Positions 15,682 through 52,267 of a stretch of DNA of 54,283 bases are shown piece by piece. The notes under the pieces are model-generated. The model was not told the origin of the DNA. It worked only from the letters and a program-made list of their open reading frames with translations, and did no database searches. The stretch is from an uncultured Gammaproteobacteria bacterium. GTDB taxonomy: Bacteria; Patescibacteriota; Patescibacteriia; Patescibacteriales; UBA12465. The position numbers and the translations under genes were made by a program. The DNA is taken from positions 12,180 through 66,462 of the forward strand of contig CAYTRX010000001.1 in the NCBI GenBank assembly GCA_964440365.1, read 5' to 3'. Each line of letters starts with the position of its first letter. The stretch's first letter is position 1.

Positions 15682-15730
15682 ATTGTTTTGTTTTATTTTT
15701 TCTATTTGTTTATGTGATTTTTGTGTATTT

Positions 15731-18700
15731 TTAATCTTTTAAGCAACGAATACCATATCCAAATCTTTTTTCTATTTTACCTAAACCATTAATTTGATTT
15801 GTATTATTATTTATATTTAAATAATAAGCATTTTTTCCATCTTCATTAGGATCTTCAGTTGATGTCCATAAATAAGACTGGCTTATTACTTTACTATTTT
15901 TTGTAAACGCATAACCGATAGAAAGAGCATTAAAGCCAGAAGAATTATTATTTTGTAAATTTTTACCTATAGAACAATAAACAGAAGATGTGTTCCAACT
16001 AATATTAGAAGCTAAAGCTTTAGCTAAATAATTGTATTGACCGTCACATTGATATTCTGAATTACTATTTAAATAATCAAATAATTGTTGAAAGTCAGAT
16101 TTTGAAGGAACGTGCCAACCCGGTGGACAAAGGCCTTGAGATCTTTCCTCATTTTCCCCAGCCATAGCTGCACTCCATTGATATAAATAACCGTTATTAC
16201 CACCATAAGCTGTTACACACCATCCAGTATCTTCTCCCAAAACCTCTTGTCTACCAGAACAACCATTATTATACCTTAAATTTTCCGCAAACCAACATTG
16301 TTCACCTATTTTTACTGTGCTATAAGTATATCCTTGATATTCAATACCAGAACAATCACTAGTTCCTCCACTAGCTCTAACCTTAATAATATTTGAATAT
16401 CCTAAAATTTTATTTCCATTACGAGCTTGAATTCTAATAAAATAATCTTTATTATTTGCAAGACCATAAATTGTGGCTTCACAAACATTCTTACCTACAA
16501 AATTTTCGGTATCACAAAAAGATAAATCATAAGCATTTAATCCTGAGCTTATTTTATCAAAATCTAAATTTGAGGCAACAAGATCTTTTTTAATATAATA
16601 TGAAGTAATCCCTGCTTGAGGAGAGTCCCAGGATAAATAAACCTGTCCACCAACCCCTGGATCAACATATGAAACATTAATAAGGTGCTCAAAAGTTACA
16701 GCACTTGAAATCGTAGGAGAAGTCTCTAATAAAGTATTTCCATTATAAACTAACACTTCAAAAGTATAATCAAAACCATCTCTTAAATTAAATATTTCAT
16801 AAGAGCAAGAATATTTATCAGATACTAATGGACACCAAGAAGAGTTTTTATTTATATATAAAGGAGGGTTGTGTCCATGATTATTAGAATGCTTAATAAA
16901 AACCCTTGTAAATTCTTGTTCGGAAGAAACATCAAAAGAAACCTTTACCGCCCCTCCAATACCAAGATCTATAACCTTAAAATTTGTTATTAAAGGAGGA
17001 GCAGTTGGTGTAGCTGAAATTCTTATAGGTCCTTCTAGTTGTATATTATTATTATAAATAGAGAAATCAATATTATAAAGTCTATCATTTATTAAATCCT
17101 GCAAAAGATAGGTGCATAAATATTCACTGCCATCTTCGCTTAAATTACAAACATTGTTTTTTAGGAGATTAGAGGTAGTAAAAGAGCCGCCCTGAGGCTG
17201 TCGAGACAATTCAAATTTTGTAAATTCTAGATAACGATCCGCATTAATCTTCCAAGAAACTTTTAGCGTTCCGCCTTCTGCTGTGTCAATGGCTTTGTAA
17301 TCCCTTAACATCGGAACATAAGGAATGGTTGGAGTGGCTGAAACAATTGGTGAAGTTTCTCTTTTTTCAGCTCCCACAAAAACATCAAGATAAAAATTAT
17401 ATTTTTGATTATTAGTTAAGCCATTAGTAGTATGGGAGCATTGACGTTTATTATTTACTACTGGTCCACAAACACTTGGCTCCAAAGAAACAGTAGTAGC
17501 GCCACTTACTCCAACCGGATCTCGATGTAATAAAAATCTAGTAAATTCTCGATTAGCAGCCATTTCCCAAGTAAGTTTCACTTTTCCACCAGTGCCCACA
17601 TCAACGGCTGAAAAATTTGACAACATCGAAACATAAGTTGGCGTAGCTGAAACACTAGGTGAAACTTCCATTCTTCTGCCATCATGATAAACCTCAAAAT
17701 AAACACTATAATTAACATTATTTTCTAATCCTTGTAAATTATAGGCGCACAAATATTCATTTTCTTTTAATTCACAAATACTTTTTTCTAAAGGCATACT
17801 AGCCAAATTTCCTCCTTGAGCTTGGTAAAATAATTTAAAACCAGAGAAGTCTCGATCTTTATTAATTTTCCAAGAAAGTCTTAAATTTCCTCCGGTTTCA
17901 GTATTAACAGCTTGAAAACCTCTAACCATAGCAACATAAGGAGAAGTTGGAGTGACTGAAACCACCGCAGAGGTGTGAATTATTCTTGCCTCATTTAAAG
18001 TTTCAATATAAAAATCATGTTCTAAATTATCGGTTAAATTATCTAAATCAAGAGAACAAGAATAAACATTATTTGATAAATTACAATTAGCCCCCTCTTT
18101 TGTTCGATAAATCTTTGTTGTTTCACCATTTTTAGGAGTTTGATAAATAGTAAATTTAGTAAAGTCTCGCTCATTACTAGCCTTCCAAGTAAGCTTGACT
18201 TTTCCACCAGTACCTAAATTAGTAGCTACTAAATTTGTTACGATTGGGATTGGTGTATTAGTTGGCATCGCGCTAACAAAACGAGAAAAGCCAAGTTCAG
18301 TGCCAGCAGAAGATAAAGCTGTTACTTTTAAATTATATCGTCGATCTTCTTCTAAATTTCGCAATCTATAATTACATTTATATTTAGTATTATTGGAGAT
18401 TTTTGAACAATCACTTGATTCAGCCTGAATTGTTAAATAATTATTATTAGAGCCCTCTCGTTGATAAAGAACTTTAAAAAATTTAACATTAGAACCTCCG
18501 GAGTTAACGGCTGATTCCCAGTAAAGATCTAATTCATTACCACGCAGAGCATCAGAGGCGGTAAATGGCTCCACAAAAGGAATAAAAGCTGGGGTAACTG
18601 AAGTATAAAAAGACGAACCAAGCTCCATTGAATTGCCATCTAGTGCAGCAACTCTAACATTATAAGAATAATCTGAGCTTAATCCACTTAGGGTATAGGA

Positions 18701-21700
18701 ACAATGATATCTAGAATCTATTGTTGAGCAGTTTGAAATAGGTATTAAATTAGAAAGAATATTATTAGGTGAGCTAGCTATAGCATAATAAACTCTAAAA
18801 TTAGCTATATTATTAGTATCCGAGACCCAAGATAGTCTTACGCTAGATCCGTCGCTATTAGGCAAAGCCTCAAAAGAAGATATAAACCGAGCGCGAGAAG
18901 TTCGGAAAAGATAAGTTTCTTTCAAAAAACTAACGATACATAAAGCATTACCTGGGCAATCACTATTATTAGAGCAACTAATAGTTGGATCATTACTACA
19001 TACTTTAAATAAACTATTACCTTTAATAACCGCTGAATCACTCATAAAGGCTGGCAAGTCATCACTTAGATCGCCATCTCTACCAGCATCTCGACAATAA
19101 TAAAACTCATAATTATAAACACTAGTATTAAAAGAAGGTGAATCTACCCAAGGTGTCCAAGTGCCATCGCTTTTAACCGCTGGCCAAGGATTTTTACAAA
19201 GCAAAACATAAATATTGACTTCTGCATTTTTCCCCTCCCCATCATTAATAATATTATTTTCATCCATCTTTACTGTTGCTCGCAATGAAGATTTGCCATC
19301 TGTGATATTAGGTTTGACTTGAACTAAACGATTAGAAGAATTTTGTGCCCAGGCGACAACATTATCATTAAACTCAATAACATTGGTGTTGCTAATACTC
19401 CAATTATAAGTCCAAGAGTAATTATCATTTGGACCAATGATTTGTCCATCGCTAGTTTTAGCTTTGACAGAAAAAGCCTTATCTTTATCAGGAGCTGAGT
19501 CAAAACTAGCATGACGAGCATCGCTATCATTTTCGTTCAAATCGTTTTTATTGTCCTGAAATAAATACGAACTAGGATTAATTTCTAAATTATCAATAAC
19601 ACAAATTCCCTGTCCGGAAGTATTGCTAGACAAGGTTTCAAAAGACCAACTATAAGAATTTTTATAAGAATTGAAAAAAGTTGAAGGATTAACAACGCCA
19701 TTATTATAAACATTTCCTCCATTCATGGCGATACCAGTAAAAGCCCTTACTCCGCTTCCACTATTTAAATTCTCATCACCCTTAACCACAACAAAATATT
19801 TTGCTGAAGCTTCTAATAATTGTTTGGGTTTAAAATAAACTGTACTTTTATTAACGCCATGATTAATCTCAACACTTCCCATTACTGAGCAGTAAACGGG
19901 ATCACCAGCCGCTATACTTTTCTTAACAAAAATTTTTGCTAACGGCGCCACAACCTTATTTAAAGCTCTTTTTATTTTGGCTAAGAAACCTGATTGATAA
20001 ACAGGCTCCCAATCAGATCTATTTAAACCAGCAATTTTTTGTGTACCACTCGGACAAGTAGCACCACTTTCTTTTTCTTGTATTAATAAAATGTTTCCGT
20101 CTAAAGAAGGGGCGTCCATTCGTTGATCAAAATTTATTTCAATAATAGCGTTGCGACAAATACTATTTTTCGCCGGTTCCGGTAAAACACTAGTAATTGA
20201 AGGTCGAGCATAGCAACAAGAATCAAAACCACAACCAATATTGCTTGGGCTTTGTCCTTCTATTACACAATCATTATCTGAAAAACAACCACAACAAAGA
20301 CCTCGATTAGTACCAGTACAAGCTCCTTTATCAGCTAAACAAGTTAAATTTTCTCCTACTTGCTTACAAACATCTTCGGTAGAAATATTAGTAGGCTTAC
20401 AGCAACAACTACCACAAGTTTCTGGATCAGTTGTTATATTAATAGGTGTATTGCCATCTTCATTTAAACAAGAAAAAATATTACAGAAAATATTACTGCA
20501 GACATTTCCATCATAACAAGTAGTTCCTGCTCCAGCCGGCATAGCCTGACACTTAGTATTACAAGCAGAAAAATTAGTAAAAAGTTTATTATAAAAAGCT
20601 TCGTTGGTAGTAGTAGATTTTAAACAAACATTTCCTGCGGTTTCACAATTATAAAAAGCGCAGAGGCCATAATTATCGTCAGTCGATGAAGTAGAAACAT
20701 CATATTTTGCGCCACCTAAACAGTTCACTAATTCTGTTGTTGTTCCGGTTTCTGTTTTTATTTCTATTATTTTAGGACTATTACTCCAACAACAAGATCC
20801 ATTAGCCTTACAAGCAGCTTCATTTGTAATAGCACCACAATTTGCCCCACAACCAATCCGACAAAGATAATCATTTTTATAAGTTCCACTTTTTTTTGGA
20901 ATAGAAGAACATATTGTTGGATTTTGTGAATCACAATCATAATAAGGACAAAAACCGATATCACTAGATCCCTCTCCCCAGATATCAGCGCCAGAAGCAC
21001 CAGCACGACATTTGCTTTCACTTTCATCCCAACAACAAACAGCACTATGGGCTTTACAAGCCTCTCCTTTTAATTCAGCACAGTCTAAACAAGCACCATT
21101 AGGATAACTTGTATCACAATATTTTCCAGAACTTGTTAAGCAATTACAAGCCAAATCCCTAGCCTCTGTATTATTTCCAGCTACCTTACAACCAGAACAT
21201 AAACCTAAAGTTGAAGAAGTAGCACTAGGACCACAAGTAGAAGCGCAAATTAAAGGATGACAACAATCTGGATTTTGTGGAACTTGATCTGAAGTAGTTG
21301 CGTTTTTACTTTTATCACAACAACATTCACAAGCACCTTCGGTGCTAGTAGCACAAATACCTGGTGAATTAGGGCATTGATACCTCTTATCTAAAGGACA
21401 AAAAAGGAAGTCGGAACAACTTTCGGCATTATTAGGAGGATTAAAAGTAAAATCATTAAGTCCAGTCACAAATCTCCATTGAAAAAATGAACTTTTTGGC
21501 ACATCAGCAAAACAAGCACTTTCATTTTCTACACAAGCCCCCGCATTCGGTGTACCAATTAAACAACAATGAGGGATAGCCCCAGAACAATTTTCATTTT
21601 TTGTACAAGTACCAACTGAAAAATTAAGGCTATTACCAGTTTGGCCACTTCGCTTAACTTTTACTGGTCCGCTTAAAGAATTAGCTGGTACATTAACTGA

Positions 21701-23692
21701 AATTTTACTTGCTCCATTTTCAACACTAGCAGTAGCCGGAGCAGTCTCTTTTTCTTTATAAAAAACAGCCGAAGCACTTTCACCAAAATATTCACCCCAT
21801 AAAGACACATTGGTATTATGCGGACCAAAGCTTGGTGAAATCTTACAAACGCTTGGCATTAAAGGTATTGTTGAGCTAACATTAAACTTACCAAAATTAT
21901 TTGAATCTACTTCATTCCAAGAATCTATTTTTACAACTAAATCATAATTTCCATCTACTATACCGGAAGGAACTTTAACTAAAATTTGACTATCAGACCA
22001 TAAATTATCAGCGCAAACCGCTGGAAAACTAAAGTTAGCTTCGGTTTTATCGCTATTTAATTTAAAATAAACAGAACTATTTCCTCGATATCGACCAAAA
22101 TTAGCCCCCAAAATACTTACATATTGTCCAGCCGAACCAGCACTAGGAGAAAAAGAAGAAATAAAAGGACCAGCTGGCGCATCAGCCTTCTTTAAAAAAC
22201 TTAGACTATTACTATTAATTCCATTTTTTTTAACAAAAGTGCTAGTATCTCCAGCTCTTAAACTAGGAACGGTAGCGGCACCACTAGTGTCATTTGTAAT
22301 TTTATTAGGAGCAAAAGCTAAAACATTATTAAATAAATTACCAAAATAAACTTCAGAATTTTTTAAACCAACACCATAATAATAAATAGCCTCATTGGCC
22401 TCAGCTTCAGTGGGACTAATATTACAAATTCCAGGACGAGAAATATTGTTAATTTTTAAACCTTCTATTTTTGGTCCAAAATCATCTTTACTTCTATCGC
22501 TTTTACCATCTTGAGTAATAACCTCAAGCTCAAAATCATCTCCCACTAATAAACTATTATTTTGCGGAACAGCCATTATAATTTTACTATTAGTCCAAGT
22601 GTTATCACAATTATTATTTAATTCTTGTGGATTTCGTAAAGGAATAATTGTCTCTCCTTTTATTAAATTAACAACTGAAGACTCGCTATAAGTATTAAAA
22701 TTTTGTCCAAAAATACTAATAAGATTACCTTTAGCCGTATTAGCCGTAGTTTTATCGCAAGTAGAGCCAGGGCAATGACTATCTTCTTCACAAAATCTAT
22801 TAATATCATTAACGCAAAAACCTCCAACTGGACTAATGGCTAAAATAAGAGGCTCACCAACACATTTACAGGTTGTAGTATCGCAAGATAATCCATGATG
22901 AGGATTACAAGTGTTTTCAGTTCCGGTACAAGTATCACCCGCATTACAAGGTTCACCTAATTCCGAATAATTGCTTTCATCAGGTAAACAACGACAGGAT
23001 GTTTGGTCACAAAAAGAATTTTCGCCACAATCAACTTCATCATCTATTGTACAAACACCATCAGAAACAGTACCGCAAGGTTTATATTCACAACGACAAG
23101 AATTCAAGCCACAAATTAAGCCATTTTTACATTGAGTATCGTCCGGATCACAGGCATTTGGGTTTGATGAACACCAAGAGTCATGATCTCCAGGCGAACA
23201 AGTAGAGCCAATACAAGGCCCCCAAGAACCATCAGTACAAAAAGATTTTCCATCACAACCACAATTTCGATATTCACCATCTACACAAGGGCCACCAATT
23301 GTTCCTGTCGCCCCTCCCAAACGATTTAAAACAAAAATTGTTATTCCCCAAGAAGCCAAAATAATAAGTAAGCCAATTATCCCAGCCTTTAAAATTCTCT
23401 TGGCTTTATTTACCTTTTCTTCTTCACCCCCTGAGCTCATCCACATAAAACCAGCATAAATCACAATAGCGACAGCAATAACACCCAAAAAACTCATGGC
23501 GATATTTATAATTCGAGCAACCATTGTTCGTGGATCCTTATCCCCCAAAGCAATATCATTGGCGACTACATCAGCTCCAAAAATATCATTAGCCAAAACT
23601 GGTTTAGAGAAATTAAACAAAAAACTCAAGGCTAAAAATAAAAAAACACCTAAAGAAAATAATTTAAAAAATTTATTTTTTTTATTAAACAT
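15731..23692 (-). CDS. Giant 2653-aa membrane-anchored surface protein. Order: TrbC/VirB2-like pilin-type anchor, Cys-rich module, IPT/TIG repeats, Cys-rich module, Ig-like region, 8 FN3-like repeats, FISUMP domain.
   Basis: One uninterrupted ORF. The N-terminus has a signal/TM followed by IINIAMSFLGVIAVAIVIYAGFMWMSSGGEEEKVNKAKRILKAGIIGLLIILASWGITIFVLN, a two-helix pilin-like hairpin. ISP..G...ISI.G.NF-type IPT motifs occur. The C-terminus reads VKIGEQCWFAENL...GYLYQWSAAM...GLCPPGWHVPSKSDFQQL...YLWTSTE...GYGIRCLKD. Confidence 0.85.
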   Translation of the reverse strand: MFNKKNKFFKLFSLGVFLFLALSFLFNFSKPVLANDIFGADVVANDIALGDKDPRTMVARIINIAMSFLGVIAVAIVIYAGFMWMSSGGEEEKVNKAKRILKAGIIGLLIILASWGITIFVLNRLGGATGTIGGPCVDGEYRNCGCDGKSFCTDGSWGPCIGSTCSPGDHDSWCSSNPNACDPDDTQCKNGLICGLNSCRCEYKPCGTVSDGVCTIDDEVDCGENSFCDQTSCRCLPDESNYSELGEPCNAGDTCTGTENTCNPHHGLSCDTTTCKCVGEPLILAISPVGGFCVNDINRFCEEDSHCPGSTCDKTTANTAKGNLISIFGQNFNTYSESSVVNLIKGETIIPLRNPQELNNNCDNTWTNSKIIMAVPQNNSLLVGDDFELEVITQDGKSDRSKDDFGPKIEGLKINNISRPGICNISPTEAEANEAIYYYGVGLKNSEVYFGNLFNNVLAFAPNKITNDTSGAATVPSLRAGDTSTFVKKNGINSNSLSFLKKADAPAGPFISSFSPSAGSAGQYVSILGANFGRYRGNSSVYFKLNSDKTEANFSFPAVCADNLWSDSQILVKVPSGIVDGNYDLVVKIDSWNEVDSNNFGKFNVSSTIPLMPSVCKISPSFGPHNTNVSLWGEYFGESASAVFYKEKETAPATASVENGASKISVNVPANSLSGPVKVKRSGQTGNSLNFSVGTCTKNENCSGAIPHCCLIGTPNAGACVENESACFADVPKSSFFQWRFVTGLNDFTFNPPNNAESCSDFLFCPLDKRYQCPNSPGICATSTEGACECCCDKSKNATTSDQVPQNPDCCHPLICASTCGPSATSSTLGLCSGCKVAGNNTEARDLACNCLTSSGKYCDTSYPNGACLDCAELKGEACKAHSAVCCWDESESKCRAGASGADIWGEGSSDIGFCPYYDCDSQNPTICSSIPKKSGTYKNDYLCRIGCGANCGAITNEAACKANGSCCWSNSPKIIEIKTETGTTTELVNCLGGAKYDVSTSSTDDNYGLCAFYNCETAGNVCLKSTTTNEAFYNKLFTNFSACNTKCQAMPAGAGTTCYDGNVCSNIFCNIFSCLNEDGNTPINITTDPETCGSCCCKPTNISTEDVCKQVGENLTCLADKGACTGTNRGLCCGCFSDNDCVIEGQSPSNIGCGFDSCCYARPSITSVLPEPAKNSICRNAIIEINFDQRMDAPSLDGNILLIQEKESGATCPSGTQKIAGLNRSDWEPVYQSGFLAKIKRALNKVVAPLAKIFVKKSIAAGDPVYCSVMGSVEINHGVNKSTVYFKPKQLLEASAKYFVVVKGDENLNSGSGVRAFTGIAMNGGNVYNNGVVNPSTFFNSYKNSYSWSFETLSSNTSGQGICVIDNLEINPSSYLFQDNKNDLNENDSDARHASFDSAPDKDKAFSVKAKTSDGQIIGPNDNYSWTYNWSISNTNVIEFNDNVVAWAQNSSNRLVQVKPNITDGKSSLRATVKMDENNIINDGEGKNAEVNIYVLLCKNPWPAVKSDGTWTPWVDSPSFNTSVYNYEFYYCRDAGRDGDLSDDLPAFMSDSAVIKGNSLFKVCSNDPTISCSNNSDCPGNALCIVSFLKETYLFRTSRARFISSFEALPNSDGSSVRLSWVSDTNNIANFRVYYAIASSPNNILSNLIPISNCSTIDSRYHCSYTLSGLSSDYSYNVRVAALDGNSMELGSSFYTSVTPAFIPFVEPFTASDALRGNELDLYWESAVNSGGSNVKFFKVLYQREGSNNNYLTIQAESSDCSKISNNTKYKCNYRLRNLEEDRRYNLKVTALSSAGTELGFSRFVSAMPTNTPIPIVTNLVATNLGTGGKVKLTWKASNERDFTKFTIYQTPKNGETTKIYRTKEGANCNLSNNVYSCSLDLDNLTDNLEHDFYIETLNEARIIHTSAVVSVTPTSPYVAMVRGFQAVNTETGGNLRLSWKINKDRDFSGFKLFYQAQGGNLASMPLEKSICELKENEYLCAYNLQGLENNVNYSVYFEVYHDGRRMEVSPSVSATPTYVSMLSNFSAVDVGTGGKVKLTWEMAANREFTRFLLHRDPVGVSGATTVSLEPSVCGPVVNNKRQCSHTTNGLTNNQKYNFYLDVFVGAEKRETSPIVSATPTIPYVPMLRDYKAIDTAEGGTLKVSWKINADRYLEFTKFELSRQPQGGSFTTSNLLKNNVCNLSEDGSEYLCTYLLQDLINDRLYNIDFSIYNNNIQLEGPIRISATPTAPPLITNFKVIDLGIGGAVKVSFDVSSEQEFTRVFIKHSNNHGHNPPLYINKNSSWCPLVSDKYSCSYEIFNLRDGFDYTFEVLVYNGNTLLETSPTISSAVTFEHLINVSYVDPGVGGQVYLSWDSPQAGITSYYIKKDLVASNLDFDKISSGLNAYDLSFCDTENFVGKNVCEATIYGLANNKDYFIRIQARNGNKILGYSNIIKVRASGGTSDCSGIEYQGYTYSTVKIGEQCWFAENLRYNNGCSGRQEVLGEDTGWCVTAYGGNNGYLYQWSAAMAGENEERSQGLCPPGWHVPSKSDFQQLFDYLNSNSEYQCDGQYNYLAKALASNISWNTSSVYCSIGKNLQNNNSSGFNALSIGYAFTKNSKVISQSYLWTSTEDPNEDGKNAYYLNINNNTNQINGLGKIEKRFGYGIRCLKD
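16385..18900 (-). repeat. Array of eight diverged FN3-like repeats of about 100 aa inside the giant gene (approximate boundaries)
   Basis: Each unit shows ..F.A.D.G.GG.VKL.W......F..F.L......, then C-x(7-11)-C-x-Y/H-x-L..L.....Y.F....., ending S..VSATPT. Examples are IVTNLVATNLGTGGKVKLTWKASNERDFTKFTIY and MLSNFSAVDVGTGGKVKLTWEMAANREFTRFLLH. Confidence 0.7.
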
Positions 23693-29741: not shown

Positions 29742-30983
29742 TTATTTATAAATAGGGAAGCGCTGACAAAGATTTTTCACTTTCTTTTTTAATTTTAATA
29801 ACTCAATCTCATTATCTTTATTTAAAAAAGCTTCATTTATTAAATCGCAAATTAACAAAACTTCAGCTTTTTTAAAACCTCTGGTACTAATAGCGGCACT
29901 ACCAATCCGAATTCCCGAAGGCTTCATAGCTGGGGCTGGATCATTAGGAATAGTAGAGCGAGAAACAGAAATTGAAATTTTTTCCAAAATTTGTTCGGCC
30001 GCCAAACCATTTATTCCCTTATTTCTTAAATCAATCACCATTAAATGATTATCGGTGCCCGAAGAAATAATTTTATAACCCAAACTCATCAATCTATTAG
30101 CCATCACTTGAGCATTTTTTATCACTTGCTGACAATATTTTTTAAACTTAGGCTCAAGCGCTTCTTTAAAAGCAAGGGCTTTGGCTGCATTGATATGATT
30201 ATGTGGCCCACCCTGAATACCAGGGAAAACAGCTCGATCAACTTGTTGGGCAAATTCTTTTTTACATAAAATAAAAGCTCCTCGTGGTCCTCGCAAAGTC
30301 TTATGAGTAGTAGCCGAAACAACATCAAAATATGGAACCGGACTGCTTAAAACTCCTCCGGCAATTAATCCAGCAATATGAGAAATGTCAGCAAAAGTAT
30401 AAGCCGAAACCTCATCAGCAATTTCCTTAAATTTTTTCCAATCAAGCTCTCGAGAATAAGCACTAAAACCAGCTACTATCATTTTTGGTTTTTCTCGTTG
30501 AGCTATTTCTCGCACTTGTTCCATGTTAATCAAGCCGTTAGCATCAAGTTCGTATTGAATAAAATTATATAATTTCCCAGAAAAATTAGCTGGATGACCA
30601 TGAGAAAGATGTCCACCATGATCTAATTTTAAACCCAAAACCTTATCTCCTGGTTGTAAAAAAGCCATATAAACAGCCGCGTTAGCGCTTGAACCAGAAA
30701 AAGGCTGCACATTGGCGTGCTCCGCTTTAAATAATTTTTTTAATCTTTTTATTGCTAAATTTTCCAGGTCATCAACCACCACATTACCACCATAATATCT
30801 TTTACCACTATATCCTTCACTATACTTATTAGTAAAAACTGAAGACATCGCCGCTAAAACTGCTGGAGAAACATAATTTTCGGAAGCAATTAAGTTAATT
30901 TCTTCTTCTTGTCTTTTTATTTCTCGCTTAATTAATCTTACCACTTCCGGATCTTTATTATTTAATTGTTTATATGAAATCAT
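29742..30983 (-). CDS. glyA: Serine hydroxymethyltransferase
   Basis: LIASENYVSPAVLAAMSSVFTNKYSEGY..RYYGG, and the PLP-Lys context TTHKTLRGPRG. Confidence 0.95.
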   Translation of the reverse strand: MISYKQLNNKDPEVVRLIKREIKRQEEEINLIASENYVSPAVLAAMSSVFTNKYSEGYSGKRYYGGNVVVDDLENLAIKRLKKLFKAEHANVQPFSGSSANAAVYMAFLQPGDKVLGLKLDHGGHLSHGHPANFSGKLYNFIQYELDANGLINMEQVREIAQREKPKMIVAGFSAYSRELDWKKFKEIADEVSAYTFADISHIAGLIAGGVLSSPVPYFDVVSATTHKTLRGPRGAFILCKKEFAQQVDRAVFPGIQGGPHNHINAAKALAFKEALEPKFKKYCQQVIKNAQVMANRLMSLGYKIISSGTDNHLMVIDLRNKGINGLAAEQILEKISISVSRSTIPNDPAPAMKPSGIRIGSAAISTRGFKKAEVLLICDLINEAFLNKDNEIELLKLKKKVKNLCQRFPIYK

Positions 30984-43060: not shown

Positions 43061-43489
43061 ATGTTTAAAAAAGAAAGTAATTTAAGTAATTTTAATGAAG
43101 CCGAAACCATTATCGGTGAATCAGTTCAAGTTAAAGGTAATTTTGAAAGTAATGGCAATATTATTGTCAATGGTATATTAAATGGCACTATCAAAACCAA
43201 GGGCTCTATTTTAATTGGCGATAAAGCCAAGGTGTCAGCTAATGTATCAGCTGAAGAAATTAGCGTTAGAGGACAAATTACTGGAAACTTAGATATTAAT
43301 GGCTATATCGCCATTGGTTCATCAGCTAAAATATTCGGTGATATTGAATGTTCTCAAATTTCTGTTGAAAGAGGAGCTGAGATCAACGGAAAAGTTGTTA
43401 TTAATAATTCAAAAAATAATAATCGAAAAGAAAAATTAAGTGAAAAAAATATTGAAAAAATTGAAGAAATCGAGAATATAAATGAATAA
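43061..43489 (+). CDS. Bactofilin (polymer-forming cytoskeletal protein, DUF583 beta-helix)
   Basis: ETIIGESVQVKGNFESNGNIIVNGILNGTIKTKGSILIGDKAKVSANVSAEEISVRGQITGNLDINGYIAIGSSAKIFGDIECSQISVERGAEINGKV is the typical repetitive bactofilin core. Confidence 0.8.
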   Translation: MFKKESNLSNFNEAETIIGESVQVKGNFESNGNIIVNGILNGTIKTKGSILIGDKAKVSANVSAEEISVRGQITGNLDINGYIAIGSSAKIFGDIECSQISVERGAEINGKVVINNSKNNNRKEKLSEKNIEKIEEIENINE

Positions 43490-43491
43490 TT

Positions 43492-44211
43492 ATGAATATA
43501 TTTATTTATGATACCTTCTTAGATAAATATAAAAGAAAAGTTAGATTAGTCGAAGAAAAATTAAATGAACTAAAACTTCAAGGTAAAATTATTTATCTAA
43601 GAGATATTAAAAACCTAAAAGACTCCATTAATAATGAAATGCAGATGGGGGCTAAAACAATTGTTGCTCTAGGAAATAATGAAACAATAAATAAAATTGT
43701 TAATGTTTTGGCTAATATTAGCGAAAAAATACCATTAGCAATTATTCCTATTGGTAAAAATAATTCAATAGCCAAATCTTTAGGTGTGTTAAACGAAAAG
43801 GATGCTTGCTATATTCTTTCTGGTCGTCGAATAGAAAAAGTTAGACTAGCTCAAGCCTCTTCTTCTTTTTTTATTAATAATGCTAGAATAAAAAATAAAA
43901 GGACAAAAATATCGGTTGATAATGCTTATGAAATAAGTTCTAAAAATAATGGAGAATGTTTTATTTTAAATCTTCCACCGCAAAAACAACTTTTTGATTA
44001 TATTAAAATAGATCCGCAAGACGAAATTTTAAATATTTATATTGAATCAGGACCAAAAAGCAAAACTCATTTTTTATCAAAAAATATAAAAATTAAAAAT
44101 GAAAAAGAAAGATTAATATTAGATGACTCTAAAGAAATAGATTGTCCAGTAGAATTATCAGTATCTGATAAAAGTATTAATTTTATAGTAGGAAGGGAAA
44201 GAAAATTTTAA
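43492..44211 (+). CDS. Diacylglycerol-kinase/YegS-like lipid kinase fold protein with a degenerate nucleotide loop
   Basis: IVALGNNETINKIVNVL...PLAIIPIGKNNSIAKSLGV aligns by eye to the GGDGT....V.N.L....PLGIIP.GT.NDFAR.LG pattern, but GGDGT is replaced by GNNET. It starts 3 nt after the bactofilin stop. Confidence 0.5.
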   Translation: MNIFIYDTFLDKYKRKVRLVEEKLNELKLQGKIIYLRDIKNLKDSINNEMQMGAKTIVALGNNETINKIVNVLANISEKIPLAIIPIGKNNSIAKSLGVLNEKDACYILSGRRIEKVRLAQASSSFFINNARIKNKRTKISVDNAYEISSKNNGECFILNLPPQKQLFDYIKIDPQDEILNIYIESGPKSKTHFLSKNIKIKNEKERLILDDSKEIDCPVELSVSDKSINFIVGRERKF

Positions 44212-44243
44212 TAAACCAAAATAATATAGATTTAAATATTAAA

Positions 44244-44273
44244 AAACAATACCTATTAGGAATTGTTTTTTTT
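44244..44273 (+). terminator. Rho-independent terminator after the bactofilin/DAGK-like operon
   Basis: AAACAATACC / GGAATTGTTT stem (one mismatch) followed by an 8-T run. Confidence 0.55.
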
Positions 44274-44316
44274 ATTAATATAAAACATAAAACAAAAAAA
44301 TAAATCAATTAATCAT

Positions 44317-44332
44317 TGTTCTGCGTAGAACA
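44317..44332. repeat. Palindrome copy R1, TGTTCTGCGTAGAACA
   Basis: Read directly from the sequence. It is a member of the 8-copy family with consensus TGTTCTRCGNRGAACA. Confidence 0.9.
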
Positions 44333-44361
44333 TTATTAATTAAATTTATTTTATACTTTAA

Positions 44362-44377
44362 TGTTCTGCGTGGAACA
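44362..44377. repeat. Palindrome copy R2, TGTTCTGCGTGGAACA
   Basis: Read directly. It is followed by a T-run. The left flank TTATTTTATACTTTAA is shared (inverted) with R5. Confidence 0.9.
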
Positions 44378-44537
44378 TTTTTTATTTAATAATTATCACG
44401 GAAAAATAAAGTTGTTTATTTTAAATTGATTAGTCCTGGCTATACTGAACCGGTAGGCATATGGAAAATTAACAACTGATATTTTAAATTTATCGCCGAT
44501 ATGTTATTATAAATTCATAATATCAATTAATAAATCT

Positions 44538-44870
44538 ATGTCTAATAAAAAATTAGAGATCAAAGCTGGTTCAAGAAGAAAGAAAAGCTATACAGCGCAG
44601 TTTAAGCTCGACAGAGCTCTCGATGCTATTAAGGGAAATGTAGCCGAAATAGCTAGAAAATATGATTTGAATGTCAATTTGCTCTATCTTTGGCGTGATC
44701 AGCTTATCGAGAGAGGTCCTCAAGTCTTTGAAACCACCCCTGATCAGGTTGTTGGTGAACTAAAAACTAAAGTAGCCAGACTGGAACAAATGCTTGGTAA
44801 AAAGGAAGTGGAATTAAGTTTGCTAAAAAATTTTTCAGATTTTTACTCATCCCGAAACACGTCATCATAG
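44538..44870 (+). CDS. IS3-family transposase OrfA (HTH DNA-binding part)
   Basis: YTAQFKLDRALDAIKGNVAEIARKYDLNVNLLYLWRDQL (HTH_Tnp_1-like) followed by a leucine-zipper-like coiled coil. Confidence 0.85.
   Translation: MSNKKLEIKAGSRRKKSYTAQFKLDRALDAIKGNVAEIARKYDLNVNLLYLWRDQLIERGPQVFETTPDQVVGELKTKVARLEQMLGKKEVELSLLKNFSDFYSSRNTSS
44825..44831 (+). promoter_or_regulatory. Programmed -1 ribosomal frameshift heptamer A_AAA_AAT
   Basis: In the orfA frame the codons are cta-aaa-aat (L K N). A -1 slip enters the orfB frame, which is open from here to 45763. Confidence 0.6.
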
Positions 44871-45763
44871 AATTTGCCAGGTCTCAAGTTTCTTCTGGTA
44901 TATTTAGTATTAATCGTATTTGTCAGCTCTGTGGAATATCTAAGAATACCTACTACCAGCATAAACACCCCAATGAAAGATTTACTGATAAATTCGAACA
45001 TATCAAAACTAATGTTAAGAAAATAATTATTAATAATAGTGCTTATGGAGTAAAGCGAATAAAACAAGCACTTTTAGATAAATACGGGATAGAAATTGGC
45101 CGAGATACCCTAGGCAGACTGTTAAAGCTATGGAGTTTAGGACTTAGAAGAAAGTTACGCACCTCAAAAAAGAGCGTTATTAAAGAAATTATTGAAGTAT
45201 TGGCCGATAGAGTCAATTTAATGATTAGATTAAGAATTATTACTCCATTTCAGGCGATGACCTCAGATATCACAGAAATAATTTACAATCATGGTCAAAG
45301 CAAGGCATATCTGGCGGTACATAAGGATGTTTTGGGACAAATGGTTTATGGCCATGAAGTTGGTGAAACTATGGAGGCTAAATTGGTTATTAGTTCATTT
45401 AAAAAGGCTGTAATAACTATTAAAAAATTAATTAAAAAAATACCGAATGAATTTTTATGTCATTCAGATCAGGGCTCACAATTTACTAGTTATGAATATG
45501 TTGAAGAAGTTTTAAGGAATAATATTATCCTGTCGTATTCAACACCAGGCACACCCACGGAAAATCCAGGACAAGAATCTTTCTTTGGTCGATTAAAAGA
45601 TGAGTGTAAGGCTGAATTTTTAGAAATGGAAACATTGGATAAACTAAAAAAACTGATTTCCAAAAAAATCAGTTACTACAACAACGAGCGACTTCATACT
45701 AGTCTTAATCTAAAATCACCAAAAAAATATACGTTAAATTTTATTAAAAATTTTTCCAAATAA
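44825..45763 (+). CDS. IS3-family transposase OrfB (DDE catalytic domain), expressed as an OrfAB fusion by -1 frameshift
   Basis: My own translation of the -1 frame from the slippery site has no stops (KKFFRFLLIPKHVIIEFARSQVSSGIFSINRICQLCGISKNTYY...). It joins the track ORF 45200..45763. DDE-type motifs are MTSDITEI, CHSDQGSQFTSYEY and YYNNERLHTSL. Confidence 0.8.
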   Translation, partial: KKFFRFLLIPKHVIIEFARSQVSSGIFSINRICQLCGISKNTYYQHKHPNERFTDKFEHIKTNVKKIIINNSAYGVKRIKQALLDKYGIEIGRDTLGRLLKLWSLGLRRKLRTSKKSVIKEIIEVLADRVNLMIRLRIITPFQAMTSDITEIIYNHGQSKAYLAVHKDVLGQMVYGHEVGETMEAKLVISSFKKAVITIKKLIKKIPNEFLCHSDQGSQFTSYEYVEEVLRNNIILSYSTPGTPTENPGQESFFGRLKDECKAEFLEMETLDKLKKLISKKISYYNNERLHTSLNLKSPKKYTLNFIKNFSK

Positions 45764-45864
45764 TTTGCCGAATAACAGTTCAGTATTTCTAGGGATTGAC
45801 AAAATAAATTTTTTTTTATAAATATTAAGCTTTATTCATTAATATTGTTTTTATCTCCATATAA

Positions 45865-45880
45865 TGTTCTACGTAGAACA
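45865..45880. repeat. Palindrome copy R3, TGTTCTACGTAGAACA
   Basis: Perfect palindrome. It extends to the 20-bp AATGTTCTACGTAGAACATT at 45863-45882. Confidence 0.9.
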
Positions 45881-46158
45881 TTATATAATATTATAAATAT
45901 AATATAAATATAATTATTTAAAATAATAAAAATATAAAATATGATAAGCGTCCAATTTTAATTAATAATTTATAGATTAATAATTAAATTATTTTTTATA
46001 AAAACAATTAAAAAGATTAGTTTTAAAAAAACATTTAAACTTAATAAGAAGAAGAATAATAATATATTATTTATATTTTGCTCAATTATTTAAATGATTA
46101 ATTTAATAAAAAATATATTTTATTAAATTATAAATAACATTTTTTAATAATATAAAAA

Positions 46159-46174
46159 TGTTCTGCGTGGAACA
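46159..46174. repeat. Palindrome copy R4, TGTTCTGCGTGGAACA
   Basis: Identical core to R2, and also followed by a T-run. Confidence 0.9.
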
Positions 46175-46346
46175 ATTTTTATTCAAAAAATTTTTTTACT
46201 TTATTCAAAAAATATTTTATATTTAAAAAATTAATGCTTTAATATATTATTTAATTTAAATATATTAATACAAAAACTATATTAAACAATAAATAATTAA
46301 AATGATAAAATAATTTAAATTTTAGATATATTTTTTAAAACATTAA

Positions 46347-46362
46347 TATTCTACGCAGAACA
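46347..46362. repeat. Palindrome copy R5, TATTCTACGCAGAACA (inverted orientation relative to R1/R2)
   Basis: The reverse complement is TGTTCTGCGTAGAATA. 26 nt (46353-46378) are the exact reverse complement of 44346-44371. Confidence 0.85.
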
Positions 46363-46433
46363 TTAAAGTATAAAATAATTTTGTTAAAAAATAATTAACA
46401 TTAAATAATGATACAAGTTATTTAAATATAAAT

Positions 46434-46449
46434 TGTTCTACGAGGAACA
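46434..46449. repeat. Palindrome copy R6, TGTTCTACGAGGAACA
   Basis: Read directly. The right flank TTAAATTTATTTT is shared with R1/R8. Confidence 0.85.
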
Positions 46450-46527
46450 TTAAATTTATTTTTTAAAAAATAAGCTTTTAACAAACTACTTAATAAAAAA
46501 ATATATATTATTTTATTTACTTATATT

Positions 46528-46543
46528 TGTTCTACGTAGAACA
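46528..46543. repeat. Palindrome copy R7, TGTTCTACGTAGAACA
   Basis: Perfect palindrome. It extends to the 26-bp ATATTTGTTCTACGTAGAACAAATAT at 46523-46548. Confidence 0.9.
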
Positions 46544-46661
46544 AATATGATTTAATATTACTTGTAAGAAACAAATTTATTTAATATTATTTTATTAACT
46601 ATAATTTATAAATTATAAAAGGTGAAAATATTATTTTATAATAAATAAGTTTATTTAATGA

Positions 46662-46677
46662 TGTTCTGCGTAGAACA
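46662..46677. repeat. Palindrome copy R8, TGTTCTGCGTAGAACA
   Basis: Identical core to R1. 19 nt, TGTTCTGCGTAGAACATTA, are shared with R1. Confidence 0.9.
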
Positions 46678-46700
46678 TTAAATTTAAAATTTCTTTAACA

Positions 46701-46733
46701 AAAAATAGACAAGTTTTAATTGTCTATTTTTAT
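46701..46733 (-). terminator. Rho-independent (bidirectional-looking) terminator downstream of yidC
   Basis: AAATAGACAA (46703-46712), loop gtttta, TTGTCTATTT (46720-46729), flanked by an A-run and a T-run. Confidence 0.6.
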
Positions 46734-46785
46734 CTTATATAAATTTATTTTAAATAATTGTTTTAAGTTTATGTTTAGAAAAATA

Positions 46786-47532
46786 TTAATTAACAACCTT
46801 CACAATATTTTCTTTTTCTTTTTTATTAACGCTTTTAAAGACCACAATCTGCTGAATAACTGTAAATAAGGTTGTTAGAAACCAATAAAAAGTTAATCCG
46901 GCTGGAAAGCTCATACCAATAATAATTGTAATTATTGGCATAACGTAAAGCATTTGTTTATTCATGATTGTTAACATTTTTTCATCCTTAGCGCCCTCTG
47001 TTTTAATCTCTGGTTTTTTAGCTTGAAGCATTTTGCTCTGCCAGAATTGAGCTAAACCAGCTAACACTGCTAATACAATACTCTTTTCTGAAAAATCAAT
47101 AAAACCAAGACCAAAAGTATTTATAATACCCCCCTCGGGTATACTAATAAAGGGATAGAGTAAATCTAAATGATTTTGAGCAAAACCATCTTTAAATACT
47201 CTAAAAATTGCGATTAAGAATGGCAATTGAATAAGCAAAGGCAAACAAGAAGAAAAAGGATTAACCTTATTTTCTTTATATAAACTCATTAAAGCTAAAC
47301 TCATTGCTTGTTGATCATCTTTATATTTTACTTTTAGCTCTTCAATTTTTGGTTGAAGGTCCTGCAAAGCTTTTTGTGATTTAATGGATTTACTTGAAAG
47401 GGGCCATAAAATAAGTTTGATTAAAAGAGTAATAACTATTATCGCAACCCCTAAATCACCAAAAATATTATAAATAAAAACTAATAAGTTTAAGATTGGT
47501 TGATAAAAAAAAGTGACAAAAAGTCCGTTCAT
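46786..47532 (-). CDS. yidC: Membrane protein insertase YidC (short type)
   Basis: PILNLLVFIYNIFGDLGVAIIVITLLIKLILWPL, KVNPFSSCLPLLIQLPFLIAIF, and synteny with rnpA-yidD. Confidence 0.9.
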   Translation of the reverse strand: MNGLFVTFFYQPILNLLVFIYNIFGDLGVAIIVITLLIKLILWPLSSKSIKSQKALQDLQPKIEELKVKYKDDQQAMSLALMSLYKENKVNPFSSCLPLLIQLPFLIAIFRVFKDGFAQNHLDLLYPFISIPEGGIINTFGLGFIDFSEKSIVLAVLAGLAQFWQSKMLQAKKPEIKTEGAKDEKMLTIMNKQMLYVMPIITIIIGMSFPAGLTFYWFLTTLFTVIQQIVVFKSVNKKEKENIVKVVN

Positions 47533-47577
47533 ATAATATAAAAAGTTAAATTATAATTAATGTTTTAAATATAAATT

Positions 47578-47850
47578 TTATTTTAAAGGGTCATGACCAC
47601 CCTTATTAAAAGGATTACAACGCAATATCCGCCAAATAGCCTTAAACCAACCTTTAAAGAAACCATATTTTTTAATAGCTTCTATTCCGTATTCGGAACA
47701 AGTTGGCGTAAAGCGACAATAACCATGTGGAAACATCTTTTTTAAAAATCCATGATCTGGTGATAAAGTTTTTTGGTAAACTCTAATAAAAAAAATACTA
47801 AGGTTTTTTGGTAAATTTAAAATAAGTTTTAAATAATCATTAATAGACAT
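47578..47850 (-). CDS. yidD: Membrane protein insertion efficiency factor YidD
   Basis: [10 protein letters not shown]....[38 protein letters not shown] is the YidD signature. Confidence 0.9.
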
Positions 47851-47854
47851 ATTT

Positions 47855-48196
47855 TTATTTTAAAATCTTAGCTATTTTTAAAAGATTTAATAATGACTCT
47901 TCTAATTCTGAAAAATCTTTTTCATCTACCCCCTTTTTACTTATTAGTAAAAAATCAAAACCACTCTTTAAATTGTCTTTTTGGAGATAAAAAATAGATC
48001 TTAATCTTCGTTTTAATTTATTTCTTCTAACCGCTTTTTTGCTAACCTTAGCTGAAATCACAATACAAAATCTATTATTTTCAAGATTATTTTTTTTAAA
48101 TTTTAAAGAAAAATCTGAATTATAAAAAGATTTACTATTTTTTAAAACACTTTCTATTTCCTTATTTTTTCTAAGTCGATTCTCTTTTTTTAACAT
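47855..48196 (-). CDS. rnpA: Ribonuclease P protein component
   Basis: A small basic protein with the RNR-like motif [14 protein letters not shown], placed between rpmH and yidD. Confidence 0.85.
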
Positions 48197-48225
48197 TTTT
48201 AGTGTTTTAATTATTCTTTTTAAAA

Positions 48226-48363
48226 TTATTTACTTAAAACTGCTCTGCCTTTATCACGTCGTCTTTTTAAAATATCTTGTCCGTCTTTAGTTTGCATTCT
48301 TTTCATAAAACCATGTTTTCTTTTAGCTCTTTTAGTATTAGGTTGAAATGTTCTTTTTGGCAT
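48226..48363 (-). CDS. rpmH: 50S ribosomal protein L34
   Basis: My own translation: MPKRTFQPNTKRAKRKHGFMKRMQTKDGQDILKRRRDKGRAVLSK. It is below the ORF-track cutoff but is an unmistakable L34 sequence. Confidence 0.9.
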   Translation of the reverse strand: MPKRTFQPNTKRAKRKHGFMKRMQTKDGQDILKRRRDKGRAVLSK

Positions 48364-49173: not shown

Positions 49174-49251
49174 ATGTGAACTTATTGACAAAAAATAAAT
49201 AAAAATATATTATGTGAACTTATTGACAAAAAATAAATAAAAATATATTAT
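49174..49251 (+). promoter_or_regulatory. Tandem 38-bp duplication carrying two copies of a consensus promoter upstream of rplS
   Basis: ATGTGAACTTATTGACAAAAAATAAATAAAAATATATT occurs twice, with starts at 49174 and 49212. Each copy has TTGACA (49185-49190; 49223-49228), a 17 nt spacer and TATTAT (49208-49213; 49246-49251). Confidence 0.6.
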
Positions 49252-49914: not shown

Positions 49915-50682
49915 ATGAAAAAAATAATCAAAAAATTTGTACCTAAAAAAATAATTAATTTAGGTTTAAAAATAATGAATTTTATAAATAAAATAGTGAC
50001 GCTTATAATTATAAAAATATATAAATTAAAATATAAAAATTTAATAATTAGAAAAGGAACAACTGACAGTGCTGTATTTAGAAGTATTTTTTTATTTAAA
50101 GAATTTAAATTACCAATAAAAATAACCCCTAAATTAATAATTGATGCTGGAGCATATACAGGTCTTTCTGCATTATATTATTCCTCAAAATATCCTTCGG
50201 CAAAAATAATTTGTATTGAACCAGAAAATTCTAATTTTGAAATCTTGGAAAATAACACAAAAAATTTACCTAATATAACAAGAATTAAAGCAGCATTATA
50301 TTACAAAAATGCATTTTTAAAAATAAAAGATACAGGAACTGGAAAATGGGGTTTTGTGGTTAAAGAAGTTTTTGAATCAGAAAATTTTGATATTAAAGCA
50401 ATTACTATTGAAGAAATATTAAAAAAATCAGGATATGATAAAATTGACATTCTAAAACTTGATATTGAAGGTTCAGAAAAACAATTATTTTCTAAAAATT
50501 ATCAAACATGGTTAGAAAAAGTTAATATTATAGTGCTTGAATTACATGACAGAATTGTTGATGGTTGTACAAAATCTCTTTATTCTGCAATTAATAAAAA
50601 TGAATGGAAAGAGTTTAAAAAAAATGAGAAAGTGATTTTAATTAAAAAAGATTATTATAAATCTCATTTCAACCAAGTTTAA
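49915..50682 (+). CDS. FkbM-family SAM-dependent methyltransferase
   Basis: IIDAGAYTGLSALYY...IEPENSNFEILENN...DILKLDIEGSEKQLF is the typical FkbM-family pattern. Confidence 0.7.
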   Translation: MKKIIKKFVPKKIINLGLKIMNFINKIVTLIIIKIYKLKYKNLIIRKGTTDSAVFRSIFLFKEFKLPIKITPKLIIDAGAYTGLSALYYSSKYPSAKIICIEPENSNFEILENNTKNLPNITRIKAALYYKNAFLKIKDTGTGKWGFVVKEVFESENFDIKAITIEEILKKSGYDKIDILKLDIEGSEKQLFSKNYQTWLEKVNIIVLELHDRIVDGCTKSLYSAINKNEWKEFKKNEKVILIKKDYYKSHFNQV

Positions 50683-50771: not shown

Positions 50772-50780
50772 TTATCCACA
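50772..50780 (+). promoter_or_regulatory. Perfect DnaA box TTATCCACA upstream of dnaA
   Basis: Exact match to the 9-mer consensus, about 100 nt upstream of the dnaA ATG. Confidence 0.6.
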
Positions 50781-50878
50781 CTTTATAAACAAGTTTTAAA
50801 CAAAAGCAAAATTGTTTTATTTGTTTTTTTAAAGTATAATAAAAATTGATTTTTAAAAAATTATTTATTTTAAAATAT

Positions 50879-52267
50879 ATGACTAATGAGCAAACTTGGC
50901 AAGCCGTTTTGGGTGAATTAGAGATTGGAATATCTCGTGTTAATTTTATAACTTGGTTTAAAAATACTTTTATTTATTCTATTGAAGATGGTGTGGTTAC
51001 TATTTCAGTACCTAATGATTTTACAAAAAAATGGTTGGAGCAAAAATATTATAAAGCAATAAAAAGTTCTATTGAAAAAATTAGTGAAAATAAAATTAAA
51101 GAAATAAATTTTAAAATAAATTTAAAGAAAAACGAAGAAGAAAAAAACTCAGAAAAAATCAGAGAAAAAAAAGAAAATATAAAAATTGATCCGAAAAATA
51201 ATTTTTCCTTAAATGAAAATAATGAAGCTAAAATAAATGTTAGTTGTTTCGGTCTTAATGCTAAATATGCTTTCTCAAATTTTGTTGTTGGAAAATCAAG
51301 TGAATTAGCTTACGCCGCCTGCCAAGCAATTGTTAATAATCCTGGTAAAGCTTATAACCCTTTATTTATTTATGGTGGAGTTGGTTTAGGAAAAACTCAT
51401 CTTTTACAAGCGATGGGAAATGAATTAGTAAAAAATGGTAAAAAAGTTTTATATACTACCAGCGAACAATTTACTAATAATTATATCGAATCTATTCGTA
51501 GTGGAAAAGCTAAAGAATTTAAAAATCAATATCGTAATGTTGATTTACTTTTAGTTGATGATGTTCAGTTCATGGGCGGAAAAGATGGTACCCAAGAAGA
51601 ATTTTTCCATACTTTTAATGAATTACAACAAGGTGATAAACAAATTGTTCTATCTTCTGATCGTCCACCTAAAGCTATTCCTGCTATTGAAAAAAGATTA
51701 ATTTCTCGTTTTGAATCTGGAATGGTAGTTGATGTTGGAAGACCTGATATTGAAACTAAAATAGCTATTTTAGAAAAAAAAGCTAAAGATAGAAACTATA
51801 TTATTGAAGAAGAGATCTTAAATTATATTGCTAATAGTATTCAAAATAATATTAGAGAATTAGAGGGAGCTTTAAATAAAATTATTGCTTATCACGAATT
51901 TCATAATTTAAAACCAAGTCTTAAAGTGGTAAAAAATATTTTAAATGATTTAATAAATAATAATCAAATTAAACCAATCTCCGCTAAAGATGTTATAGAA
52001 ATTGTTTGTCAATTTTATAATATTAACCATAAAGATTTAATTGGTAATAAAAGAAAAAAAGAATTAGTTATTCCTCGTCAAATAGCTATGTATATAATGC
52101 GCGAAGAATTAAAAATATCCTATCCAAGTATTGGAGAAGAATTAGGTGGAAGAGATCATACTACCGCAATGCATGCTTATAATAAAATTCAAAAAGAAAA
52201 AGATTTAGATAATAAAATAAATCAAGATATTCAATCTATTAAACAATTGATTTACGGATCTTTTTAG
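50879..52267 (+). CDS. dnaA: Chromosomal replication initiator DnaA
   Basis: W..VL.EL motif at the N-terminus, Walker A GGVGLGKTHLL, LLVDDVQF, IVLSSDRPP, and a C-terminal DNA-binding domain (RQIAMYIMRE...IGEELGGRDHTTAMHA). I prefer the start at MTNEQTW (ATG 50879). Confidence 0.95.
   Translation: MTNEQTWQAVLGELEIGISRVNFITWFKNTFIYSIEDGVVTISVPNDFTKKWLEQKYYKAIKSSIEKISENKIKEINFKINLKKNEEEKNSEKIREKKENIKIDPKNNFSLNENNEAKINVSCFGLNAKYAFSNFVVGKSSELAYAACQAIVNNPGKAYNPLFIYGGVGLGKTHLLQAMGNELVKNGKKVLYTTSEQFTNNYIESIRSGKAKEFKNQYRNVDLLLVDDVQFMGGKDGTQEEFFHTFNELQQGDKQIVLSSDRPPKAIPAIEKRLISRFESGMVVDVGRPDIETKIAILEKKAKDRNYIIEEEILNYIANSIQNNIRELEGALNKIIAYHEFHNLKPSLKVVKNILNDLINNNQIKPISAKDVIEIVCQFYNINHKDLIGNKRKKELVIPRQIAMYIMREELKISYPSIGEELGGRDHTTAMHAYNKIQKEKDLDNKINQDIQSIKQLIYGSF

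Follow-up and report, generated by a model that had tools for sequence, protein, structure and literature searches.

Eight clustered parS-like palindromes near dnaA form a probable chromosomal centromere in a Falkowbacteria-like Patescibacteria genome

A 54,283-bp stretch of Patescibacteria DNA (contig CAYTRX010000001.1; hereafter the window) carries eight 16-bp palindromes in a gene-free, A/T-rich spacer between a bactofilin operon and yidC, close to dnaA. These palindromes are probably parS sites, which together would constitute a condensed, ParB-loading chromosomal centromere of a Falkowbacteria-like Patescibacteria genome. This interpretation, already put forward in the original prediction as a condensed origin-proximal centromere, is favoured because the sites are restricted to one locus, recur in about 25 related genomes and have their 16-mer at parAB in at least 22 others. 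The array is a known kind of element; its new points are modest and comprise the first described centromere candidate of a Patescibacteria lineage, a parS variant, an unusual density of sites and a separation from parAB.

A pattern search with TGTTCTRCGNRGAACA recovered all eight predicted sites (starts at 44317, 44362, 45865, 46159, 46347, 46434, 46528 and 46662; R1 to R8, no strand assigned) and no further match in 54,283 bp at up to two mismatches; the chance level is a mean of 0.09 matches, and none of 100 dinucleotide-preserving shuffles equalled the observed eight. R1 (44317–44332), which matches without mismatch and has the stop codon of the DAGK_cat gene 106 bp upstream, and R8 (46662–46677) share the sequence TGTTCTGCGTAGAACA; R2 (44362–44377) and R4 (46159–46174), the latter likewise a pattern match, read TGTTCTGCGTGGAACA; R3 (45865–45880) and R7 (46528–46543) read TGTTCTACGTAGAACA; R5 (46347–46362) is TATTCTACGCAGAACA, with the single outer-arm mismatch (TATTCT...) that had been noted, and R6 (46434–46449) is TGTTCTACGAGGAACA. 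R7 is indeed the core of a perfect 26-bp palindrome, whereas the perfect palindrome around R3 extends over 28 bp and not over the 20 bp first claimed. Site-to-site spacings are 45, 1503, 294, 188, 87, 94 and 134 bp, the second of which reduces to the predicted 128 bp once a 1375-bp insertion sequence (IS) is removed.

The spacer itself (44212–46785, no strand) lies between two convergent operons, bactofilin-DAGK_cat and yidC, whose 3′ ends face it, and its G+C content falls to 8.7% after removal of the sites and the IS (15.6% for 46001–47000). Apart from the IS it contains no open reading frame (ORF) of 60 or more amino acids; for 45802–46785 this bears out the earlier observation, the sole ORF of at least 40 amino acids there being one of 49 at 46720–46869. 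No Rfam RNA or tRNA was found in the spacer. A second assembly of this strain, obtained independently from another sample (L220), reproduces all eight sites and the IS.

The array units have the same 16-bp palindromic form, outer arms TGTT...AACA and CG centre as the Spo0J-parS site of Bacillus subtilis (TGTTNCACGTGAAACA) and the published Pseudomonas parS (TGTTCCACGTGGAACA; PMC7022226), and differ from them in the core, which is CTA-CG-TAG in the array and (T/C)CA-CG-TG(A/G) in known parS, a symmetric C6-to-T and G11-to-A change. They are thus 16-bp inverted repeats of the tGTTnCAC half-site family that deviate at C6/G11, the half-site TGTTCTAC being one base off canonical TGTTCCAC. In R2 and R4, whose right halves correspond, as predicted, to the complement of TGTTCCAC, one half is canonical, and R6 has the near-canonical half TGTTCCTC. 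The only other parS-like site in the window is a three-mismatch match at 30517, which is at chance level (1.09 expected). Like chromosomal parS, the array is origin-proximal and present in several copies; unlike these two examples, it packs eight sites into about 1.2 kb of non-coding DNA with no parAB nearby.

The strongest link to partition systems comes from other phyla. A scan for WTGTTCTRCGYAGAACAW in one genome per species (185,579 species) yielded at least 119 tiles of 8 kb, about 97 of which lie outside the Patescibacteria clade; at least 22 of these roughly 97 listed tiles have soj/parA-parB no more than about 1.3 kb from an identical 16-mer, where chance predicts about 0.3 tiles. The variant site is mostly located 30–300 bp upstream of parA, and in a few cases as much as about 1.2 kb from it or between parA and parB (L093, L123), in genomes of Bdellovibrionota (many), Terriglobia, Bacillota, Chloroflexia, UBP3 and others, and a Pfam check of three such loci confirmed ParA together with a ParB comprising ParB_N, HTH_ParB and ParB_C. 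It is accompanied by TGTTCCACGTGGAACA, or by a hybrid such as TGTTCCACGTAGAACA, at 12 of the at least 22 parAB loci, and stands at the operon without any other parS-like sequence in L015, L052, L054 and L128. Because the 16-mer stands beside parAB in other phyla, often with classical parS TGTTCCACGTGGAACA, TGTTCTACGTAGAACA can be regarded, as judged from sequence, as a naturally occurring version of parS that has T for C6 and A for G11. For comparison, the Myxococcus parS consensus is TGTTCCACGTGGAACG (PMC7022226).

Canonical and variant forms are linked within one Patescibacteria array at locus L105 (Pacebacteria), where 11 copies of TGTTCCACGTRGAACA occupy about 650 bp (1475–2140) and mix canonical with variant halves; this array adjoins rbfA, and its 8-kb tile contains no parAB. 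On the other hand, 80 metagenome ParB loci, which were the best matches to a ParB probe alignment and are probably not from this Patescibacteria clade, carry only TGTTTCACGTGAAACA, TGTTCCACGTGAAACA or TGTTCCACGTGGAACA, so that the variant is lineage-specific and not universal. A full-text search of the literature library found the 16-mer TGTTCTACGTAGAACA in none of its papers.

Conservation among relatives follows the same pattern. In about 25 related Patescibacteria genomes (YidC 56–79% identical), one to eight copies of the motif lie beside the same bactofilin-DAGK_cat operon, usually between this operon and yidC; the carriers are loci L007, L010, L135, L217, L222 and L223 plus at least 17 GTDB tiles from the species-genome scan. 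Six copies are found in a 909-bp spacer in L007, four within 312 bp in L135, and two within 211 bp in L010, L011 and L012 (Falkowbacteria HGW-1), where a third is located within the DAGK_cat gene; L217, L223 and L222 contain six, four and two copies, respectively. In L023, L055, L063, L095 and L101, the array precedes the bactofilin gene rather than following DAGK_cat. The syntenic array that was to be sought next to yidC in related candidate phyla radiation (CPR) genomes is present, at the same place, in all relatives read that keep bactofilin-DAGK_cat there, except L218; this most distant genome with the bactofilin-DAGK_cat-yidC order has no site within 10 kb and no other repeat in place of the motif. 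The bactofilin and DAGK_cat operon is the constant neighbour of the array as far out as Uhrbacteria (L046).

Across 91 sites in 22 Patescibacteria loci, positions 1–5 and 12–16 are invariant to 99–100%, figures that are biased somewhat upwards because many loci were found using the motif itself, with TGTTCTAC as the half-site in 71% and TGTTCTGC in 18%. Beyond the sites, A/T low-complexity words are all that spacers of different genomes have in common, and in the near-identical strain L001 single-nucleotide polymorphisms fall in the flanks while R7 and R8 are exact. The array thereby displays the parS feature of sites kept by selection while the surrounding non-coding DNA drifts.

Exact conservation bears on the proposal that the palindromes are a dispersed repeat of the repetitive extragenic palindromic (REP) or miniature inverted-repeat transposable element (MITE) type, or merely hairpin-forming structural elements. 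DNA folding does predict stable hairpins for them; however, a single spacer holds all copies, both in the window and in each 20-kb locus of the relatives, so that each locus read has one cluster with none elsewhere, the copies share only the palindrome and a weak A/T flank bias, and the exact sequence, rather than just the ability to pair, is kept across phyla. This explanation can hardly be entertained. A terminator or promoter role for the palindromes was rejected after terminator and promoter scans and DNA folding.

The array lies 4.2 kb (R8) to 6.6 kb (R1) from the start of dnaA, in agreement with the 4–6 kb given originally. The sole perfect DnaA box of the window, TTATCCACA, is found at 50772–50780, just upstream of dnaA (ATG at 50879), and the two mark the probable oriC region (50772–52267, plus strand); weaker DnaA-box-like sites occur between dnaA and dnaN, and none, even at one mismatch, in 44212–46785. 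Given this distance and the lack of DnaA boxes in the spacer, the array is origin-proximal without itself being a DnaA-box cluster; relatives show a like position close to the origin. These data also make it most improbable that the A/T-rich spacer is part of oriC and that its palindromes bind a replication-control factor: the extreme A+T content outside the sites and the position near dnaA, in the zone of about 42–49 kb where the GC skew turns, would suit such a role, but the spacer shrinks to 211–312 bp in L010 and L135 with the sites kept, and in some relatives the array is found across the bactofilin operon, on its opposite flank.

Another alternative, that the sites are operators of a transcription factor controlling bactofilin-DAGK_cat and/or yidC-rnpA-rpmH, appears very unlikely. 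Palindromes of 16 bp are typical of dimeric helix-turn-helix repressors, and the array is upstream of the bactofilin gene in L023, L055, L095 and L101. In the window and most close relatives, however, it is located between convergent 3′ ends and past the terminator hairpin of yidC, where there is no promoter; the 27 promoter-like matches do not amount to an enrichment over the 23.8 expected. Moreover, up to 8–11 copies irregularly spaced over as much as 1 kb do not resemble operator architecture, their position relative to genes varies among relatives with no fixed promoter-relative placement, and the same sequence is tied to parAB in other phyla. The hairpin in question, an A/T-rich stem followed by a T-run (46701–46731, minus strand; DNA fold −9.0 kcal/mol, z = −5.3), begins 55 bp and ends 85 bp past the yidC stop codon and has an equivalent 3′ of yidC in L007. 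A consensus terminator scan made no call on it; it is probably the terminator of the yidC operon, bounding the array and not part of it.

Several results weigh against the assignment of the palindromes to ParB. No parB or parA is present in the 54-kb window (all ORFs inspected; tblastn), and a ParB profile run over 34 Patescibacteria loci (414 kb) gave no match at E ≤ 1, the same profile having recovered ParB in every control locus. Nor did the contig stretches around DnaN, YidC and bactofilin homologues of relatives reveal a ParB. Probing by tblastn with Spo0J, Caulobacter ParB and Soj, which served as probes only, found no ParB in the Patescibacteria loci searched; the matches checked by Pfam (three ParB, one ParA) are all in non-Patescibacteria loci. 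The motif, which adjoins parAB in other phyla, never does so in this clade's loci read. Furthermore, C6/G11 are to our knowledge nearly invariant in characterised parS sites, and it is there that the motif departs. Literature searches returned no paper on ParABS, ParB or parS in Patescibacteria/CPR.

The same results can be turned in favour of a different, clade-specific dimeric DNA-binding protein that reads a parS look-alike, possibly together with bactofilin-DAGK_cat anchoring the origin to a cytoskeletal scaffold. Such a protein, raised in the original prediction as an alternative, is not needed to explain the array and is retained as an improbable rival. It would fit the observation that the array always adjoins bactofilin-DAGK_cat, on either side of the operon, and that the more distant L132–L134 and L136, with VanW in place of the operon next to yidC, lack any site up to 10 kb from yidC or dnaA. 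In Myxococcus, ParB-parS is organised by bactofilins (PMC5703909); Bdellovibrio (PMC10547168) and L074 have a bactofilin gene behind parAB. Against it, sites with exactly this 16-mer occur at the parAB operons of several phyla, and hybrids of it with canonical parS halves exist; convergence on it by an unrelated protein is unlikely. In addition, no conserved candidate DNA-binding gene stands beside the arrays, whose neighbours are trxB and DUF6938 on the far side in relatives, and yidC; L218, with the operon arrangement and no sites, indicates that the operon does not require the array. Finally, the Patescibacteria DNA searched for ParB consists of origin-proximal stretches of about 20 kb per genome, about 5% of the genomes, and failure to find parB there is weak evidence of absence.

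Assignment to parS thus remains preferred, and the bactofilin association deserves a comparison of its own. Myxococcus parS sites are found beside parAB-padC-bacNOP. The array resembles bactofilin-linked ParABS systems, namely that of M. xanthus, for which BacNOP-PadC form a bactofilin scaffold (PMC5703909), and that of Bdellovibrio bacteriovorus, with the gene order parA-parB-bd3904 (bactofilin; PMC10547168) that is shared by L074, in having a bactofilin gene as an immediate neighbour of the centromere. In those systems bactofilin follows parAB; in the window its partners are a DAGK_cat-like gene and the array, and parAB is missing. That the bactofilin operon and the array are functionally coupled is only a conjecture, and their constant adjacency is a lead rather than a result: it could equally reflect inherited gene order, and in L218 the bactofilin operon exists without the array. 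A more specific version, in which a parS-like array uncoupled from parAB acts as a bactofilin-linked centromere, with the bactofilin-DAGK_cat scaffold holding the origin region of these ultra-small cells and a distant ParB without ParA or a non-ParB protein as its reader, is improbable.

Clustering as such does not set the array apart. The original prediction contrasted it with chromosomal parS as normally dispersed single copies; clusters near oriC are in fact well documented, as in Myxococcus xanthus, with 22 sites, and Pseudomonas aeruginosa, with four of nine near oriC (PMC7022226). As in the array, near-identical sites are concentrated at the origin in these clusters, which act as one centromere (PMC7022226). 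Since clustered origin-proximal parS is already documented, the claim of an undescribed cis-acting system does not stand. The array is distinguished from the Myxococcus cluster by its confinement to one intergenic spacer, by an adjoining bactofilin operon without parAB and by a genome that is, judging from relatives, probably smaller than 1 Mb.

Plasmid centromeres and iterons (F sopC, P1 parS, RK2 OB sites) share with the array the presence of several protein-binding repeats in a short non-coding stretch. Plasmid arrays are usually regularly spaced direct repeats beside their own partition or rep genes. The array differs in its irregular spacing of 45–294 bp, its palindromic units of the chromosomal parS family and its rpmH-rnpA-yidC / dnaA-dnaN context; with chromosomal housekeeping neighbours and no rep or par gene, the plasmid-type centromere or iteron array that its appearance had suggested was rejected.

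If the palindromes are parS, a ParB encoded in this genome would, by analogy, bind them. According to the mechanism described for ParB-parS (cytidine triphosphate (CTP) clamp, sliding and SMC recruitment; PMC7022226, PMC10547168), ParB dimers would load at each palindrome as a CTP-dependent clamp and slide onto the A/T-rich flanks, building one large nucleoprotein complex a few kilobases from oriC. This partition complex would mark the origin region for segregation and load SMC condensin; in L222, an SMC gene lies about 10 kb from the array. The presence of many sites within about 1 kb could provide redundancy, such that the array works despite the IS, as well as a high local loading rate.

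Chromosome segregation in Patescibacteria is essentially unstudied, and the array represents a concrete, testable centromere candidate for a large uncultured radiation, which also marks the origin region in fragmented metagenome-assembled genomes (MAGs). The C6-to-T parS variant, in use across several phyla, should be of use in work on ParB specificity as well as for parS-prediction matrices derived from TGTTNCACGTGAAACA, by which this site lies two to four mismatches off consensus.

The scan for the 16-mer also revealed other arrangements of the motif. Terriglobales/Acidobacteriaceae genomes carry the same 16-mer at many separate loci per genome, in addition to upstream of parA; one MAG, MFD02248.bin.2.133, has at least nine tiles with it, a dispersed parS pattern as opposed to the single Patescibacteria cluster. 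Loci of this dispersed pattern are L013–L015, L019, L020, L028, L044, L050, L051, L056–L059, L076, L077, L085, L090, L091, L096, L100, L103, L114, L115, L118, L121, L124 and L128–L130. At a Muribaculaceae contig end (L041, 4–336), seven copies of TGTTCTACGCAGAACA stand mostly about 51 bp apart, with one interval of 63 bp; the array is near-regular and iteron-like, possibly the centromere of a plasmid or phage. Two small contigs of Zooshikella ganghwensis (L021, L022) each hold two GC-rich forms of the palindrome, TGTTCTGCGCAGAACA and TGTTCCGCGTGGAACA, separated by about 1265 bp, which suggests a repeated element bounded by parS-like sites. Dense parS arrays may, from the example of L105, be a general feature of Patescibacteria.

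The IS that splits the array between R2 and R3 is an IS3-family element of about 1375 bp (44427–45801, plus strand, ends approximate). Its orfA (44538–44870) encodes an HTH_Tnp_1 domain and its orfB, in the −1 frame and open from about 44801 to 45763, matches Pfam rve/rve_3/rve_2; the terminal inverted repeats are imperfect, and the ends as drawn show no clean target-site duplication. The element is apparently intact. It is present in the same-strain assemblies L220 and L221 and missing in the relatives L007 and L135; its insertion into the array is evidently tolerated.

On one side, the array is flanked by the bactofilin gene (43061–43489; PF04519) and the DAGK_cat-like gene (43492–44211, 239 amino acids; PF00781), which form an operon (43061–44211, plus strand) identified by Pfam and synteny. 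The first gene on the other side is yidC (46786–47532, minus strand), part of a yidC-yidD-rnpA-rpmH operon (46786–48363, minus strand). Homologues of the window's YidC, DnaA and DnaN are from Patescibacteria, near Candidatus Falkowbacteria, with YidC being 73% identical to its Falkowbacteria HGW-1 counterpart and sharing 79% identity with a protein encoded on an ENA contig of 600 kb.

Further features were observed around the probable origin and elsewhere in the window. A perfect tandem duplication at 49174–49249, consisting of two copies of the 38-bp unit ATGTGAACTTATTGACAAAAAATAAATAAAAATATATT, is located upstream of rplS (L19) at a distance of 55 bp; with a TTGACA hexamer in each unit, it may represent a duplicated promoter. 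An FkbM-type methyltransferase gene (49915–50682; PF05050), located between tRNA-Val and the dnaA promoter/DnaA box, appears to be missing in the near-identical strain L001, whose rplS-dnaA gap is only 330 bp, and has a homologue upstream of dnaA in L222; it looks like a strain-variable insertion beside the probable origin. At 12793–23692, 11 kb of the minus strand encode two very large secreted or surface proteins of 962 and 2653 amino acids, with Cys-rich repeats and related C-terminal domains, of a type typical of Patescibacteria.

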